A DNA stretch of 64,000 bases from a virus: the IMG/VR virus record IMGVR_UViG_3300026290_000001; one strand, written 5' to 3'. This document shows positions 2,893 through 47,331 of this stretch, piece after piece; the stretch's first letter is position 1, and the number at the start of each line of letters is the position of its first letter. The notes beneath the pieces were generated by a model. It did no database searches, was not told where the DNA came from, and was given only the letters and a program-made list of their open reading frames with translations. Position numbers and translations under genes: made by a program.

Positions 2893-3609
2893 CTACTTCT
2901 TCAATTCTTTAAGTAAATATTCAACGGCATTATCAATTAAAACAGCACATTCTATTCGTGTAATACTACTATTAGGATCTAAAATCCCATCGCCTTTACC
3001 AGAAAGTATTTTCTTCTCATATAATCTATCTGCACTTTTTGCTCCCCAATGATCTTTAGGCAAGTCTTTAAAATACTTTGACATTTCTTCAATCACCTTA
3101 CCTTTCAACAATTCCTTCTGAACTTCATTTTTAAATTTATCCCATGTCCAACCTAAATGACCTGCTCTTATTAAACGTGGACAATTTTTTCCATTCCAAT
3201 CCCAATGCTGTCTTAATGATTCTACATTTTTATTTTTAGATTTTAATAATTCTGCCACAAGTAAAACTGCATTTTCTAATGTTTTTTGGTAATTCCCACT
3301 TTCACATATTTCAATTCCTATACTACGTCTATTACCAGCACCACTTCCTCCATCTCCTGCGTGCCAAGCATTTTCAAATAAAGGAATACATTCAATTGCT
3401 TGTTTTTCATCAATGGCAATATGATAACCTGTAGAAGATGTATTTGAAGGATTGGTTAAATAATCTCTTTCATTTCTTGCAGTAGATTTTGAATTCCCTG
3501 TGTTGTGAATAGTAATATATTCCCAATCCATTTTATATTTTGGACGTTTATTAGAATTCATAGGAATGTGATCTATTACATAAGGAAAAGGTAAATTAAA
3601 TTTACTCAT
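2893..3609 (-). CDS. endolysin: N-acetylmuramoyl-L-alanine amidase (amidase_2/PGRP-like) with C-terminal SLH domain
   Basis: Catalytic region HNTGN..YHIAID..WHAGDGG..SIGIE typical of amidase_2; C-terminus FKDLPKDHWGAKSADRLYEKKILSGKGDGILDPNSSITRIECAVLI matches S-layer homology (SLH) motif. Confidence 0.75.
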   Translation of the reverse strand: MSKFNLPFPYVIDHIPMNSNKRPKYKMDWEYITIHNTGNSKSTARNERDYLTNPSNTSSTGYHIAIDEKQAIECIPLFENAWHAGDGGSGAGNRRSIGIEICESGNYQKTLENAVLLVAELLKSKNKNVESLRQHWDWNGKNCPRLIRAGHLGWTWDKFKNEVQKELLKGKVIEEMSKYFKDLPKDHWGAKSADRLYEKKILSGKGDGILDPNSSITRIECAVLIDNAVEYLLKELKK

Positions 3610-3873
3610 TTATTTTTCACCACCTTTAACTAATCTCTCAATAAAGTCCGTTCCAGCATATCCAACGGTAATAAAAACTATCATTATCAACTTGCTTGTT
3701 TCAACACCTAGTAAGGCAATAGCAGTTATAGTCCCAATAGCACAACTTACCAATAAACTTATAAATATTTGAGGTAAACTTTTATTGTTATTTACAACCA
3801 TTCGTAAGACTTGACCTGCCATTCCTAAGATTGCACCTAGCAAAATAAATGATTGAACTTCAAAAATATTCAA
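3610..3873 (-). CDS. holin
   Basis: 87 aa, two predicted TM helices, charged C-terminus, directly upstream of endolysin and translationally coupled. Confidence 0.6.
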   Translation of the reverse strand: MNIFEVQSFILLGAILGMAGQVLRMVVNNNKSLPQIFISLLVSCAIGTITAIALLGVETSKLIMIVFITVGYAGTDFIERLVKGGEK

Positions 3874-3895
3874 TTTACCACCTCAGAATTAAAAA

Positions 3896-4192
3896 TTAAA
3901 TACTAGGAATATTGTCATTATCATCCAAAGTATTTATATCATTTATATTATTACTATAATCAGGTTTATCAGGCCAAGTATTATGTTTACTTAAATTTTC
4001 AAATAATGATTTTACACAATAAATTAATGTCACTCCGATTATTTGAATGACGATTTTTTCTGAAAGATTTTCAGCAATTTGTTCTCTTCCTAGAAAGGCC
4101 AATAAATAAGAAAGATAAACCCAAATTACGCTGTTAATCATTAATAAATAAACTATTCTTTTGCTAAATTCATCTATGTTAAATATTTTCAT
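3896..4192 (-). CDS. small membrane protein (lysis cassette associated)
   Basis: 98 aa with hydrophobic segments; position in lysis cluster. Confidence 0.3.
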   Translation of the reverse strand: MKIFNIDEFSKRIVYLLMINSVIWVYLSYLLAFLGREQIAENLSEKIVIQIIGVTLIYCVKSLFENLSKHNTWPDKPDYSNNINDINTLDDNDNIPSI

Positions 4193-4203
4193 AACTCACC
4201 TTC

Positions 4204-4428
4204 TCACAAACGTATTTGTTGATGACAACTTGGACAATGTTCAATAGGTGAAGCAGGATAAGTTATTATATAATAAATAACCCATAAAATTACTAATAAC
4301 CAAAACAATGGAGAACGAATAATAGTTGATAATATATTCCAAACTAAAAACAAGATACCTTGAATAAAAGATGTAGTTATATCTGTTATGTTATTAAAAA
4401 ATATATCTACTTTGTTTTTATATTTCAT
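4204..4428 (-). CDS. small membrane protein
   Basis: 74 aa, strongly hydrophobic core, C-terminal CPSC motif. Confidence 0.3.
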   Translation of the reverse strand: MKYKNKVDIFFNNITDITTSFIQGILFLVWNILSTIIRSPLFWLLVILWVIYYIITYPASPIEHCPSCHQQIRL

Positions 4429-12128: not shown

Positions 12129-12435
12129 TTTTATAATTCCTCCTTAAATTTATATTTGTAAAATAATAAATAATTTAATAAATATTTAAATATTAAATAT
12201 TAAAACCCATATCTTTTAAATTATCTTCTGATGCCATAAAATCATCTTCAGATATAATAACTTCAATGGGTTTTACCAAACCTTTATCAATTTGTTCCTG
12301 TGTTGCCCAATCAGGATATTTTTCTAATCTGAGCGTTGCTTTCATGCTAATTCCCATTTTTTCATTATTCATAAAATCTAATAATTACCTCCTTATTTTT
12401 CTAGTATATTTATATTAATAAAATAATTAATATCT

Positions 12436-12942
12436 TTATTCTTGATAGACGAACCAAATGTCCCCATCCTCACCGTCTTCATTACTAGGTTGTACAGTAG
12501 AAAATATAAAATGGTGTGCAGAAGTTTGTATTATATCTTCAAGTGTTTCTTTAATATCATAAGAACCACTACCATTAGATTGAAAACTACTATAAATCCT
12601 ACTTGCGGGTATATAAACTCCACCACTACCATAAAAAGAAAATTGTAATATACTTCCACTTACATCAGGATGAAAATAAACGTATCCATATACATAATCT
12701 ACTTTATATGTACCAATTTTACTTTCTGTGTCTAATGTAGGAAAACCATCAACAATTTCATACCACTGGTAAGTTTCCAATCCAAAATTACCCATGACCT
12801 GAACTTTATTTTGCCTATGCGGAATTTCTGATAATATTACTAATCCATTTATTATTTTTTTATATTCACTTAATGAAACTAAAGGTTGCTCATTATTACC
12901 TCTTCGTATTGAAATAAAAGGATCATAAAAAATTTGATTCAA
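12436..12942 (-). CDS. hypothetical protein
   Basis: 168-aa ORF, same strand as structural operon. Confidence 0.3.
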   Translation of the reverse strand: MNQIFYDPFISIRRGNNEQPLVSLSEYKKIINGLVILSEIPHRQNKVQVMGNFGLETYQWYEIVDGFPTLDTESKIGTYKVDYVYGYVYFHPDVSGSILQFSFYGSGGVYIPASRIYSSFQSNGSGSYDIKETLEDIIQTSAHHFIFSTVQPSNEDGEDGDIWFVYQE

Positions 12943-13104
12943 AATTTATCACCTCCAACCTAATTTTTCAAAAAATAGAAAAATCAAAAATGTTCAAAAA
13001 TTTATCTTCTGTTTTCTCTTGTTTTCTTCCATTTACTCTGTTTTTCAAGCACAAAATTTGAATAAAAGGAATATTTTATTGTTGAGCCAAGAACACTCGT
13101 GACT

Positions 13105-14397
13105 TCAGTCATGAGATGAATTGGCTCTGTTCTGTTCATATATAATCCATGATTTTCTTGCATTAATTCTTTGCATGTTAGATATTTTCGGTGTCTTCAT
13201 ACCTCTGGGTGCATTACTAAAATCTATTTTTTCACCATCTATACCCATAAGAATGGCATAACCCGTAGACATTCTACCTTTAATAAAATATTCATTACCT
13301 ATATACCTTACTTTATCAAACTTCCTAAATCCTTCTATTTTACCTGTAGGTATCTTCTGATGACTTCTTACTCCTTTTGCCTGTTGGTAATCGCCTTTAG
13401 GGATACACTTTTTTAATACAGCTTTTTCAGTTTTAAAGCTTACATCAATTAACCCTATATCTTCAATATTATTTAAACAGGCAATAGCTACAGCATCGTA
13501 GTAATGCTCTTTTGGTAATCCCATTAGCTGTCTATGTTCTTTGGTAATAAATCCAAAGGTTTCTTTTGCATTTGGTAGCTGTCTTAATAATTGTTGTCTT
13601 ATACTATTCATCTGTGTTGTGTGTTTTAATTGTCCTTTAATTTTACCATTCTTCTTTAATTTAATTCCTCCTTTGTGCAAACTATTATGACAAGTTTTAC
13701 AAAGTGTAATTAAATTTTCTGCATCATCTGAGCCACCATTTTTTCTAAAAACTATATGATGTACCTCTAATCTGCTGTCTTTACTTTTTCCTTTGCAATA
13801 CTGGCAAATATATTTATCTCTACTTAATACATAAGCTTTAGTATTAGCAAATCCATAATTAGTTCCTTTTTGATAAAGCCATTTATTACTTAATACTGCT
13901 GGATTTTTTAAAGCATGTGGGTCAAATGTTGCTGTTTCTATTATTATATTTGTAATGGGCATTATTGATTTTGCAAAATCAATTTCTTTTAAGTGTGAAT
14001 TAATTTTACTTGTCATTGTAGGAGAAAATCTATCTTTTTTAATGCTGTTTTTCCTATTATTAAATCTAGGTTCCCTATATCTAGTTTTCCTATTCCTTCT
14101 AGTTCTCCTATATTTAGCTCTTTTGTCCATTTTGTCAGATATATCATTTCTAATTTCTACTTCTGATATATAATACACTTCATTTTCGTCATTTGCTACT
14201 GCACTTCCTATTTTACTACTACCAGTATCAATTCCTAAAGTTAAATCTTGTGTATAGTCTGTAGCATGATATAGTAATTTAATTGTAAATGGAGTTCTTC
14301 TTATGCATTTTGCTTTACCATCTTTTAACAATAATCTTGCTATTGCTGGTTTACAAGGCATTAAAGGACTCCCATCTTCATTAATTACATAAACCAT
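13105..14397 (-). CDS. iscB: IscB, OMEGA-family RNA-guided nuclease (PLMP domain, split RuvC, HNH)
   Basis: N-terminus VYVINEDGSPLMPCKPAIARLLLKDGKAKCIRRTPFTIKL (PLMP domain); RuvC-I LGIDTGSSKIGSAV; Arg-rich bridge helix RRTRRNRKTRYREPRFNNRK; RuvC-II ETATFD; HNH CQYCKGKS...LEVHHIVFRKNGGSDDAENLITLCKTCHNSLH; RuvC-III HYYDAVAIA; domain order exactly as in described IscB proteins. Confidence 0.85.
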   Translation of the reverse strand: MVYVINEDGSPLMPCKPAIARLLLKDGKAKCIRRTPFTIKLLYHATDYTQDLTLGIDTGSSKIGSAVANDENEVYYISEVEIRNDISDKMDKRAKYRRTRRNRKTRYREPRFNNRKNSIKKDRFSPTMTSKINSHLKEIDFAKSIMPITNIIIETATFDPHALKNPAVLSNKWLYQKGTNYGFANTKAYVLSRDKYICQYCKGKSKDSRLEVHHIVFRKNGGSDDAENLITLCKTCHNSLHKGGIKLKKNGKIKGQLKHTTQMNSIRQQLLRQLPNAKETFGFITKEHRQLMGLPKEHYYDAVAIACLNNIEDIGLIDVSFKTEKAVLKKCIPKGDYQQAKGVRSHQKIPTGKIEGFRKFDKVRYIGNEYFIKGRMSTGYAILMGIDGEKIDFSNAPRGMKTPKISNMQRINARKSWIIYEQNRANSSHD

Positions 14398-14681
14398 AAA
14401 ATCAAATCCTTTCGGATAAATACTCTGCTTAAAAGCAGGTTATGCGTATCTATATACTATTACCATATATAGAATTCGTCCTCATCTCGACAATGATAAA
14501 ATAGCTTATATGTATATCACACCGAGCCTTACCCTCCAACTCTACTTAGTGATATACGATAGAGCAATGGTCTGATGCGTCAACCAAAGGTATCATAACT
14601 ATTCTATCGTAGTATAAATTTCTCTATACTAAGTCTGGTGAACTTAGACTTTAGAAGCCTCCGACTTTAGTCGGGGGTAGT
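14398..14681 (-). ncRNA. candidate omega RNA of IscB (structured 5' region; guide expected at the high-coordinate end)
   Basis: 284-bp non-coding gap directly upstream of iscB with higher GC than surroundings and several stems readable by eye (CCTCCGACT/AGTCGGGGG, TACGATAGAG/CTATTCTATCGTA, AGTCT..AGACT, CTGCTT..AAGCAG). Confidence 0.45.
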
Positions 14682-14927
14682 TCACTCTATTTCAGGATTG
14701 ATAGATAAATCATCTTTGCTTGTACTATTTACATTAGATAAATTATCTTCATTGGACAAATCATCATTAATAATTTGACTTAATTCGTCTATTTTAGAAC
14801 TTAATTTGATAATCTCTATCTGATACATATTATTTTGTAAACATAAAGTGACTACATCTAAGGGCAAATTACTATTGTTTATTAACTCTGCCAGTTTAAT
14901 ATTAAAATCACTTATAATAAAAATCAC
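14682..14927 (-). CDS. hypothetical protein
   Basis: 81-aa ORF upstream of IscB locus. Confidence 0.25.
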   Translation of the reverse strand: MIFIISDFNIKLAELINNSNLPLDVVTLCLQNNMYQIEIIKLSSKIDELSQIINDDLSNEDNLSNVNSTSKDDLSINPEIE

Positions 14928-14984
14928 TTCCTTTATATTATTTTTTTATCTTATTATATTGTTATTTTTTATCTTACTATCTTG

Positions 14985-15305
14985 CTATATTGTTATCTGC
15001 GCTTTTATTTCAATCCTACAAGTGTTATTAAAAATATCTTTGTTAATATTTATTACTTTTCCATCTAATAATCTATTTATCTCATTTTCGTATTTATCAA
15101 TAAAAACCACATCGATTTTATTATCTAGATTTAATTCTAAAAAACTACAAACATCTGAACTTTTATTTGTTGGGATTTGCCCTATAAATCTGTGATAATA
15201 AATATTTTCCATTTCATGATAATAAACATCTAAAGTTCCTTGTTGAAAATCGTCTGAATAGATATGGTTGTCTAGGCAATTAAATTTTATTTTTAATTTC
15301 ATCAC
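14985..15305 (-). CDS. hypothetical protein
   Basis: 106-aa ORF. Confidence 0.3.
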   Translation of the reverse strand: MMKLKIKFNCLDNHIYSDDFQQGTLDVYYHEMENIYYHRFIGQIPTNKSSDVCSFLELNLDNKIDVVFIDKYENEINRLLDGKVININKDIFNNTCRIEIKAQITI

Positions 15306-15335
15306 CTTCTTTCAAGTTTATTTATTTTTATATTG

Positions 15336-16262
15336 TTATTGAACTCCGTTTAATTTATCTTCAAGTGTTATAAAATATGAACCATACACTATATCACCTG
15401 GAATCCTATCTGTAATCCCTGTTGAATTCATATTTCCTATTGCTGTTCTTGCAATATTAAATTTCAAAGCAGTTAATGTTTTATTGCTAGATGAAACTTT
15501 TGCATTAGTTATATGATAAGATGTTCCACCTACTGTTACATATTCAGTTAAACCTTTGTAATTCCTAAACTCTACTATTTTATCAACAAACGAATTCCAT
15601 CGATCCCATGTCAAAGTTGTTACTGCACCATGATTATTGAAAGCATTTCTTTCTGCTGTAGTCCAAGACCAATTAGTAGGACGAGATTTTGAAGTAGTTA
15701 AATAAGTATAACCAGACCAATCCGAAACCTCATAATTATAATTACGATCCCTTGCTCTACATCTAAATCCATATTGTGTATTTGGTTGTAAATTATTAAA
15801 TGTGTCTGAAGGAGAATATGGTGAAGCAGTAATTCCATTAGTGCATTGAATATCATAAACATTAGCATTAGATACATTAGAATAGTTTATAGTAATTGAA
15901 TTAGAAGATATTGATGAACTAATATAATATGGTGTAGACAATTTTGATCTTGCTGTAGTTACATATATTGTATCTATTAAATACCAAGTTCCGTTCCATT
16001 TTCCAGATACTGAAACTTTATATTCAGTATTAGGTGTTAATTTTTGATATAAAGGAGGACTAGGCATTGAATTATAAATATCGTGCCATGTATTATAAGT
16101 AGAATTGGTTGATGTCCAATTATTCCAATATACATACTCTTGTGTACTTGACTTTACAAGCACAATCTCAAATCCACCATAATCTTTTGCAGGATATGTT
16201 AATTCAGTAACATTGATTCGCATAGAATTGGAAGTTACATTATTGGCATATATTCTAGCCAT
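15336..16262 (-). CDS. tail-associated protein with fibronectin type III-like repeats
   Basis: Repeated FN3-like signatures LTPNTEYKVSV and LQPNTQYGFRCRARD...SDWS. Confidence 0.45.
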   Translation of the reverse strand: MARIYANNVTSNSMRINVTELTYPAKDYGGFEIVLVKSSTQEYVYWNNWTSTNSTYNTWHDIYNSMPSPPLYQKLTPNTEYKVSVSGKWNGTWYLIDTIYVTTARSKLSTPYYISSSISSNSITINYSNVSNANVYDIQCTNGITASPYSPSDTFNNLQPNTQYGFRCRARDRNYNYEVSDWSGYTYLTTSKSRPTNWSWTTAERNAFNNHGAVTTLTWDRWNSFVDKIVEFRNYKGLTEYVTVGGTSYHITNAKVSSSNKTLTALKFNIARTAIGNMNSTGITDRIPGDIVYGSYFITLEDKLNGVQ

Positions 16263-26600: not shown

Positions 26601-26731
26601 CCCTTACTATCAACATCAATTTTTATTTTAGGATTAACTCGTTGTTCAATATCTTTTTTTACTTTATTTAGTTCTGATTCTGATGCTCTATCTAATAACG
26701 TTTTTATTCGGATTACAATATCATCTGCCAC
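20687..26731 (-). CDS. tail tape measure protein
   Basis: 2014 aa, long coiled-coil regions, hydrophobic TM-like cluster in middle, C-terminal Cu_amine_oxidN1-like stretch (TYLSIREVAEALGHQVEWDEKKRQIRIY). Confidence 0.8.
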   Translation of the reverse strand: MADDIVIRIKTLLDRASESELNKVKKDIEQRVNPKIKIDVDSKGLDKYKEKYVQIENAEAKITERTKEWTKANGESVKQIEHLKAGTDEVYKKVTETTINYKKQRTELEKLNKEQSKYWSQRVKETVGDMTKKPDELVKMADYYDNLEKTNLETIKNTQNKNFNEAKQHLTQLNKLRQDYHSLGNKDTEQAKELTKQITYHQGQYNNIIRRKIDIGEKTKIEGIEAEKLIQLEKIREQTLRNVGTIKAKNIDKDIIQQQKLTSEIHKQSLAQQDLLNRIRGMRGVDGKFIVGDNLSALNTLESQIRGFDPTNKNFSKNMAEANSKLREISTTTSIYKKEIQDANKYTGLFGQSLLEAGKKFASWLLIGDVIIKTITAVKNGIQSIIDIDTALTNLNKVTDETRETLNKFSLEANAIGRNLAKTSVEVINSTTEFARLGYSLEQSAQLAKQALLYSNVGDIGVEEASLAIISAVKGFGVAVDEEGRNIQKIVDIYNEVGNNFAISSAGIGEAMRRSAASLYSAGNTMEEAVALITAANAVVQDPATVGTALKTISMRLRGVSEDGEDVLEYLPKLEESFKNIGIQIRKDENTFKSTYDIMLELALVWEKLTDVQRANMSELVAGKRQGNIVMAMMTNYKDMQDSLTTALNSTNSALIENEKYMESIEAKSAQFKNTVMGKWQEALNSDVIKGFVIAMTTLVEVLGNAEVVVALLTTAFLIWKGTAITSSIKAMIAFITTTNAANISLLALLTTTQGLTAAMNFLKATMATNPLGLLAVVATTAMVAIYGLTNATKKHREEQQKQIETSQNQIQNLKQQKEGLKELTSEYETLKDKEKNLTATTEEKKRLLEIQKELVDKYGVSATGINLEGEAYSDSIEVIKLRILALDEELKKEQELLEFKVKASDKQTNKEIKKAINLRDTAEKRIEEYQLMIDNNKGTEWYNLRKLEDWKDIYQRQQEEIYNLSKNKQKYLEYEAQETIKTLESNGKEMSDSAKLVVSEFAKSLALQPEDIETQQQALSDFATKVANSDLDSLIEQYNKLTSAINSGDDSKKNRDGLSKTSKEITNLINTLTKGNPDLKEFAINFASLYPSTIDSKNAINTLNQYEKALSDFQTTYKDNVSKIKDLKGFLDELSDKGLTQSSIEKIISDYQDYIPLLEDESKLRQQLVKDTEDYQNAIYDAFIKTKEQDINFYNSVKNNHAELFNHLSKLYGNNVTQWANLAQAREAIELQLISKLGSEWAKYFDAFNAGTLLVNPSSMGDFRRIESGSALAVDSKTNQMLKDYAEFQKATRDMASKFKNLNVSSSLDRYGSSSKSSKSFTKTFEVWKEALEAINREIETFKDQLDDVTSFEQKTEIYDQMILLLQKKQNLLLDINNTFDSSLKQAEQNLRSYIGKGLSESDFNKIMSGSTDTIEVDIKNEKIAKAIEDFKKLKDSAEGLKKEIQGIDDEIRDLSFAEFKINLSIEDIKLSDLTQEKENLRNEMSLLEKGSAEYIALLERENQINIESVNILRNKIALVQQELASDRYNADQKQELINTLKQLKQEYINLQFSIKQQLASIADEIISIYKNIYEKQKQVALDAIDEQMKAEEKRHKQATDNLDDELKQFEDYINARIKALDREENEHDYNRELEKKQKAILETQKNIDVLSLDDSFEAKAKKAELIKQLAEQEDEINEYQHDHSIDLRKENLKDQLDAYKKDIDAKKKAEDTKLNLEKDRLDRIKRETEKHYDDLINDEQKFAQIRSDIINGNIDKVKSAFAEFKTFVNGNLEFIGNSISANLITKMEQALALLESANSANMSIPSLESTNPSSNTSGRQPMAVLDSGSFELVNNRAIMQSRLLASLLGASADWEGYGQNQTIIIGGKRFKPAKNVDGTTYLSIREVAEALGHQVEWDEKKRQIRIYHEGGIVGDKSFGFVDKFNKFFNTSANEHIIKALTNEILIPPKNIERYLIPNMQKLIANATPQLQFAGGGNVTYNMNVHIDKVENTEKGVDGFFKRINNGMSKLGK

Positions 26732-47255: not shown

Positions 47256-47331
47256 TGGAGCCGAGTATAGGATTTGAACCCATAATCTGTTGTTTACAAG
47301 ACAACTGCCTTATCAATTTGGCTAACCCGGC
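47256..47331 (-). tRNA. tRNA-Thr (anticodon UGU), CCA encoded
   Basis: Minus-strand 76 nt: acceptor GCCGGGU/ACUCGGC, anticodon stem GUUGU/ACAAC with loop CUUGUAA, T-arm AUGGG-UUCAAAU-CCUAU, discriminator U + CCA. Confidence 0.75.

Follow-up and report, generated by a model that had tools for sequence, protein, structure and literature searches.

A predicted HEARO-type ωRNA and its IscB in an IS200/IS605-type element at the end of a small phage gene, with a matching insertion-free allele

The DNA analysed is a 64,000-nt stretch of IMG/VR virus record IMGVR_UViG_3300026290_000001, referred to below as the window, and all positions are counted from its first letter. An intact iscB gene is read from its minus strand, and a 284-bp gap (14398-14681) separates the start of iscB (14397) from the stop codon (14682-14684) of a small phage gene, ORF81. 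The gap and iscB belong to a mobile element that sits at the stop codon of this small gene, in the tail-gene region of an AT-rich phage of approximately 100 kb; the neighbours on the same strand are tail genes, including those for a minor tail protein (E = 3.9e-188) and Dit (E = 1.6e-30). The features of the locus are listed in Table 1.

Table 1. Features of the iscB locus and its flanks, in window coordinates
Feature	Position	Strand	Basis and remarks
Candidate TAM ATAAA (TTTAT on the + strand, 5' of the left end)	13075-13079	-	Flanking DNA outside the element
Mobile element, IS200/IS605-type (ISC), 1606 bp, carrying the ωRNA scaffold and iscB	13080-14685	-	Empty sites L078 and L079
Left-end imperfect palindrome, core CTCATGACTGAAGTCACGAG at 13096-13115, overlapping the last iscB codons	13084-13127	.	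ssDNA fold -11.5 kcal/mol, z = -3.4
iscB, 430 aa, intact	13105-14397	-	Pfam RRXRR 2.2e-54, HNH 3.6e-14
tnpA start remnant ATGGATTATATATGA, reading MDYI*, inside the iscB 3' end	13136-13150	-	Homologous position in L007
Small hairpin AUCCGAAAGGAU, GAAA loop, holding the iscB ribosome-binding site	14406-14417	-	Helix 12
Extra hairpin 2, CCUGCUUUUAAGCAGAG, lying 3' of the Rfam model	14423-14439	-	Compensatory changes in six close relatives; terminator-like
Extra hairpin 1, UCUAUAUAUGGUAAUAGUAUAUAGA, lying 3' of the Rfam model	14449-14473	-	Compensatory changes in relatives
ωRNA scaffold core, Rfam HEARO RF02033	14475-14685	-	121.7 bits vs gathering score 83, E = 1.2e-24, model positions 1-211/211, match untruncated
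GC-rich hairpin CCCCCGACUAAAGUCGGAGG	14658-14677	-	Helix 2, covaries; first internal hairpin of the HEARO model
Upstream phage gene (ORF81), 81 aa, no family match	14682-14927	-	Co-oriented with the element; stop TGA supplied by the element's first bases
Predicted guide 5'-UCAAUCCUGAAAUAGA-3'	14686-14701	-	Flanking phage DNA outside the right end; overlaps the final codons of ORF81

The gene next to the gap had been called iscB from the letters alone, and the protein comparisons agree. The Pfam domains RRXRR and HNH were found at residues 2-178 and 198-242, with SPLMPC at residues 10-15, and residues 1-308 align with solved IscB structures, OgeuIscB among them, with E values from 1e-43 to 1.7e-42. 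The PLMP, RuvC-I/II/III and HNH motifs are visible in this alignment, in which GIDTG, IIETATF, HHIVFR...ENLITLC...CH and EHYYDAVAIAC line up with the corresponding OgeuIscB-type motifs; the RuvC (D, E, H/D) and HNH residues among them are those that we take to be catalytic. The remaining residues 309-430, approximately 120 C-terminal residues in which the TAM-reading domain is expected, gave no sequence alignment to the solved IscBs. The window protein is compact, with 430 aa against about 495 aa in OgeuIscB and its C-terminal third unaligned by sequence. Judging from dN/dS values of 0.07-0.14 against three related loci (L002, L003 and L005) at dS 0.5-2.5, iscB is under purifying selection.

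The original prediction had placed an ωRNA in the gap, which it described as noncoding, structured and visibly richer in G+C than its surroundings. No ORF of at least 40 aa was found between 14398 and 14681. The G+C content of the interval first singled out is 36.3%, compared with 28.7% for the window as a whole, and 6.3% of 303-nt windows equal or exceed it; the HEARO segment reaches 39.3%, within the top 2.6%, and the flanks of the interval have 18-30% against 36-39% inside. The enrichment is genuine and modest in size. The minus-strand RNA of 14398-14710 folds at -84.4 kcal/mol, compared with -66.6 +/- 5.1 kcal/mol in dinucleotide shuffles (z = -3.5), and none of 100 shuffles was as stable.

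A covariance-model search had been named as the prediction's own test, and it returned a full-length match to HEARO. When the whole window was scanned against Rfam, two matches were obtained at the gathering threshold, HEARO and a tRNA; the latter is a phage-encoded tRNA-Thr (anticodon TGT) at 47256-47331 on the minus strand. HEARO was later demonstrated to be the guide RNA of IscB, that is, the ωRNA (Meers et al., bioRxiv 10.1101/2023.03.14.532601; a 2026 review). The ωRNA criterion of Meers et al. places the RNA upstream of the IscB ORF, on the same strand, and either overlapping it or at a distance of at most 500 bp; here the match ends at 14475 and the iscB ATG lies at 14397 on the same strand, within that distance.

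Covariation was evaluated in eight related loci, using a MAFFT alignment and an RNAalifold consensus, neither of which was fitted to the Rfam model. The consensus reproduced the HEARO architecture without that model. In its 64 pairs, 91.3% of cells form a standard pair, compared with 72.5% in shuffles and 32-41% with slid partners, and 44 of the 64 show a compensatory change, compared with 21 in shuffles; the observed values were reached by none of 500 shuffles. Several of the pairs are G-U on the minus strand (e.g., columns 120/130, in eight of eight loci), a pattern consistent with an RNA read from that strand. The GC-rich hairpin that had been noticed by eye at 14657-14681 is one of the covarying helices, at nearly the same place (Table 1). 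A coding reading of the gap was considered and rejected, as no ORF reaches 40 aa and the substitution pattern is typical of paired RNA.

One element of the original prediction did not hold, a long-range pair of TACGATAGA with TCTATCGTA (14603-14611 with 14555-14563). The nine complementary bases exist in this sequence and are not conserved: 65% of cells pair, compared with 62% in shuffles, 49 of 500 shuffles match this value, and only one pair shows a compensatory change. The two arms sit in other covarying helices, namely 5, 6 and 9.

Conservation runs past the Rfam model's 3' end, up to the iscB ATG. Two extra hairpins lie there, with compensatory changes in 7 of their 19 pairs among six close relatives, and they extend the scaffold to about 14423. 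The RF02033 model is without downstream structural elements, and the mean length of IscB ωRNAs is 242 bp (Meers et al., bioRxiv 10.1101/2023.03.14.532601). A terminator-like scan flagged two sites, compared with 0.5 expected, and the second of the extra hairpins was among them; this hairpin is possibly the 3' end of the ωRNA. The promoter-like scan stayed at chance level (17 sites, 16.2 expected, no excess over shuffles), and therefore no transcription start is proposed. Since the neighbouring genes lie on the same strand, the ωRNA could arise by read-through.

Closest to iscB is the small hairpin that contains the ribosome-binding site. For each of its four pairs, one or more of the eight loci have both bases changed, and 84% of cells are paired. 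The hairpin is retained in all eight loci; its homologous positions lie in L002-L008, L074 and L075, and it is kept there with compensatory changes, distant loci included. It might link the folding of the ωRNA to the translation of iscB.

The boundaries of the element were obtained from insertion-free alleles, which were found only by a metagenome scan using the downstream 168-aa protein. Three sequences (L078, L079 and L080) encode proteins with 92-98% identity to it, and L078 and L079 represent the same phage lineage without the insertion. In L078, positions 95-1354 align to window 15963-14678 and positions 1346-2003 to window 13080-12423, and the intervening 1.6 kb is absent; the junction reads TCAATCCTGAAATAGA|ATAAAATATT. 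The empty allele …CTATCAATCCTGAAATAGA|ATAAAATATTCC… thus corresponds to the filled allele …CTATCAATCCTGAAATAGA(GTGAAC…CTCAACA)ATAAAATATTCC… of the window. Both L078 and L079 join window 14686 straight to 13079, leaving no scar and neither adding nor duplicating a base; because an A is present on both sides, the boundary could be shifted by 1 nt. The flanks of the empty alleles are 84-88% and 97.6% identical to the window, indicating distinct phage strains. The edges of conservation were also mapped: similarity among six loci begins exactly at 14685 (GTGAAC/GTCAAC) and is absent 5' of it, and on the other side similarity among relatives stops about 25 nt past the iscB stop.

The guide had been expected near 14680-14710 on the minus strand, and the empty sites place it within that interval, at the 16 nt directly outside the right end. 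A guide of 16 nt has the length known from characterised IscBs. The match between the window and the L078 empty site is perfect over 19 nt (14686-14704) and is followed by ATAAAA, and ATAAA stands directly after the guide-matching sequence in both L078 and L079. The same motif adjoins the element end in the window and in L002, L004, L085, L005 and L007, with unrelated surroundings in every case; its background frequency in the window is 0.0066 per position. From these flanks, ATAAA is a candidate TAM. Read on the + strand, the empty site is TTTTAT|TCTATTTCAGGATTGA, i.e., the TAM abutting the right-end flank, an arrangement known as the donor joint and shown to be a target of IscB/TnpB (Meers et al., bioRxiv 10.1101/2023.03.14.532601).

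The two empty alleles differ in how well they fit the guide. At the insertion point of L079 (641-662), 5 of the 16 positions differ from the guide, including TAM-proximal ones such as the base adjoining ATAAAA, and ORF81 of L079 ends in …SPETV, compared with …INPEIE in the window. The L079 allele may escape cleavage, and not every relative may be a target. Exact matches to the 16-nt guide in IMG/VR (n = 44) were, with the exception of the window's own contig, without flank similarity and were rejected as chance. A second guide-like site in the window, at 26622-26637 with three mismatches, is followed by AATTGA and not by ATAAA, and no self-target is predicted.

At the end of ORF81, the filled allele reads GAA ATA GAG|TGA and the empty L078 allele GAA ATA GA|A TAA, so that both proteins end in …INPEIE* and both are 81 aa long; by this comparison the product of the upstream gene is unchanged. 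Among the tail genes, the position of ORF81 seems to hold a variable cassette. The searches of the flanking proteins (168 aa, 81 aa and 308 aa) against IMG/VR gave no match beyond the window's own contig. In L080 (807-1034), a fermentation metagenome contig, a different small ORF replaces ORF81 between the ORF106-like and ORF168-like genes.

By the TnpA convention, 13080 is the left end of the element and 14685 its right end. Both ends can fold as DNA: besides the left-end palindrome, the right-end segment 14640-14683, which includes the hairpin 14658-14677, has a z of -2.9. The cores of the end hairpins match within each subgroup of elements: the window type has GACT-RAA-AGTC, and elements of the tnpA-bearing type have CTACCCTAAAGGGTAG. 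We infer that the left-end palindrome is a putative TnpA binding site, and the hairpin at 14658-14677 probably serves as the right-end DNA hairpin for TnpA in addition to being an RNA helix.

A transposase gene was encountered in the relatives. In L007, an intact Y1 transposase of 133 aa (MDYISRNHSKY…, …DKDHIHLL…) overlaps the 3' end of iscB, at the position where the window retains the short remnant MDYI*. A tblastn search with the L007 TnpA across the 64-kb window found no tnpA (best E = 0.49). The window copy is regarded as non-autonomous because there is no tnpA in the window, while relatives carry one. Most IscB elements are without tnpA (Meers et al., bioRxiv 10.1101/2023.03.14.532601), and the missing gene therefore does not exclude the window copy from the IS200/IS605 family. 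Damaged copies of tnpA were seen in L003, in L005 (1319-1666, truncated) and in L087 (about 400-640, internally deleted). The iscB of L007 itself (2917-4273) is split into two overlapping ORFs, by a frameshift or an assembly error.

In IMG/VR the window belongs to contig IMGVR_UViG_3300009671_000358 (99.6 kb). Six other IMG/VR viral contigs encode IscBs that are 72-90% identical to that of the window, and HEARO was found upstream of iscB in five of five tested loci with a full upstream region (L002, L003, L006, L007 and L008; 107-126 bits). Clostridium phage c-st and Clostridioides phage pCD1602_4 carry it too, with scores of 140 and 124 bits, respectively. A megablast search of window 12400-15400 against 50,697 GenBank phage records gave no match. 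The scan of 185,579 species genomes revealed no close cellular copy of the IscB, the best being a 1-kb contig of a Tetragenococcus MAG (L085, 89%) and a Clostridiaceae MAG (65%). Relatives of at least 72% identity were found in viral contigs, and phages may be the main carriers of this IscB lineage.

The cultured phage c-st shows the same layout, with HEARO, CST143 (annotated "HNH endonuclease") in the place of iscB and CST142 (annotated as a truncated OrfA transposase) as the tnpA remnant. CST143 differs from the window protein in having only about 40% identity to it, the c-st ωRNA belongs to a subgroup without the two extra hairpins, and the record annotates neither IscB nor ωRNA. A RAGATH-18 RNA (64 bits) was found in c-st as well (NC_007581.1; L074 679-739), just downstream of CST146, which is annotated "transposase". 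RAGATH-18 guides TnpB of the IS607 type (2026 review); c-st would then have, in a 3-kb span, two distinct OMEGA-type systems, and its record annotates neither as such. The PHROGs families that take in the window IscB, PHROG 119 and PHROG 2214, carry no label other than "HNH endonuclease". Phage IscB-ωRNA systems are likely under-annotated.

Among characterised systems, the OgeuIscB ωRNA and the HEARO family (RF02033; PDB 7UTN, 7XHT) share with the window a full-length model match, a location upstream of a co-oriented iscB, a 5' guide and covarying helices; the window subgroup differs from RF02033 by its two extra hairpins 3' of the model. The closest parallel for the layout of the element is GstIscB/ISGst5 of Geobacillus stearothermophilus (Meers et al., bioRxiv 10.1101/2023.03.14.532601), which is likewise of the IS200/IS605 type, with a right end that bounds the ωRNA, a guide formed by the right-end flank, a TAM beside the left end and a donor joint in which the TAM abuts the right-end flank, as in L078. 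The TAM is TTCAT in GstIscB and the candidate in the window is TTTAT/ATAAA. GstIscB lies on a bacterial chromosome, whereas the window element lies on a phage and has no tnpA, and the empty allele of the window is a natural variant of another phage strain rather than a laboratory excision product.

From these data we consider it highly probable that 14423-14701 on the minus strand is the ωRNA (an approximately 16-nt guide, the HEARO scaffold and two 3' hairpins) of the IscB encoded at 13105-14397, within a 1606-bp non-autonomous IS200/IS605-type element that is retained by the published mechanism. This reading is preferred because of the RNA family membership, the covariation, the intact IscB, the exact boundaries and the match of the guide to an empty allele followed by ATAAA, and also because conservation begins at 14685 and the relatives have tnpA after iscB, intact in L007 and truncated in c-st. 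The window element also fits what Meers et al. (bioRxiv 10.1101/2023.03.14.532601) describe of the donor joint, of a right end that bounds the ωRNA and of the bias toward co-orientation with the upstream gene. The original observation holds except for the one long-range pair, the data support its interpretation as an ωRNA, and the window copy is an ordinary member of a known system.

By analogy with the characterised elements, the ωRNA would be made as part of the transcript of the co-oriented upstream gene, or by read-through out of it, and would bind IscB. The complex would cut DNA in which a guide match is followed by the TAM, i.e., the insertion-free allele, which would arise after excision by TnpA or be present in a co-infecting relative, and recombination with a filled copy would put the element back. 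The filled allele would be immune because GTGAAC replaces the TAM, and transposition to new sites would need TnpA in trans. The work of Altae-Tran 2021 is reportedly part of what is established for the mechanism of the IscB family.

We advance more tentatively, as a possibility that we would not rate as even, that the element is an RNA-guided device for homing or marker exclusion between phages, which would cut an L078-type allele at the end of ORF81 and be copied in together with neighbouring markers, and for which L079-type alleles would be escape alleles. T-even phages have free-standing homing endonucleases (Seg, Mob) that work in a similar way: a nuclease gene lies between conserved phage genes, its target is the insertion-free allele of a relative, and homing or marker exclusion is expected. 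The likeness is one of mode of working and not of membership, as the window target would be read by an RNA guide and a TAM and theirs is read by protein, and the window element has transposon ends and could use a TnpA. Homing of OMEGA systems from phage to phage is described as theoretically possible in a 2026 review, with experimental support cited only for plasmids, and no demonstration of it in a phage was found in the literature searched.

A related reading, in which the element serves mainly the phage, by cutting a co-infecting, insertion-free relative in the tail-gene region (excluding its markers or converting its genome, like the T-even enzymes), and not TnpA-linked retention, appears unlikely to us. 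The natural target is indeed present in separate phage strains, tnpA is missing from the window, the closest IscB relatives are almost all in viral contigs and not in cellular genomes, and homing into co-infecting phages is listed as theoretically possible in the review; all four agree with a benefit to the phage. The guide, however, is just what every IS200/IS605 insertion would have as its flank, with no sign of selection for competition, and an experimental phage case is missing from the literature searched. The molecular mechanism is also the same as that of TnpA-linked retention, the difference being who benefits.

The reduction of tnpA to a four-codon remnant, together with the decay in relatives (the split iscB of L007 and the damaged tnpA of L005, L003 and L087), would suit an element that no longer cuts or moves and whose RNA and ORF remain recognisable through recent common ancestry. 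We regard this as improbable, as iscB is full-length with aligned catalytic motifs and a dN/dS of about 0.1 at dS 0.5-2.5, base pairs have been kept through compensatory changes, and the occurrence of the same end type in four different contexts, each beside ATAAA, points to recent mobility. A purely local function, as a structured leader for iscB translation or a DNA end recognised by TnpA instead of a trans-acting guide RNA, is very improbable: the scaffold does reach to approximately 25 nt from the ATG, the ribosome-binding site lies in a small conserved hairpin, and the match of the first hairpin to the left-end hairpin makes a DNA-level role probable, but about 270 nt with 12 covarying helices and strand-specific G-U pairs go far beyond the needs of a TnpA site, the HEARO family has already been shown to be the IscB guide RNA, and at the 5' edge lies a segment that matches the empty allele, where the TAM comes next, as a guide should.

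The locus by itself is one more instance of the well-characterised system of IscB and ωRNA. Its filled and empty alleles, taken together, yield from sequence alone the boundaries, the guide, the natural target and the candidate TAM ATAAA of a compact 430-aa IscB, and they constitute a natural phage pair for testing RNA-guided homing between phages. More broadly, phage genes called "HNH endonuclease", such as CST143 of c-st and the members of PHROG 119, include IscB-ωRNA systems.
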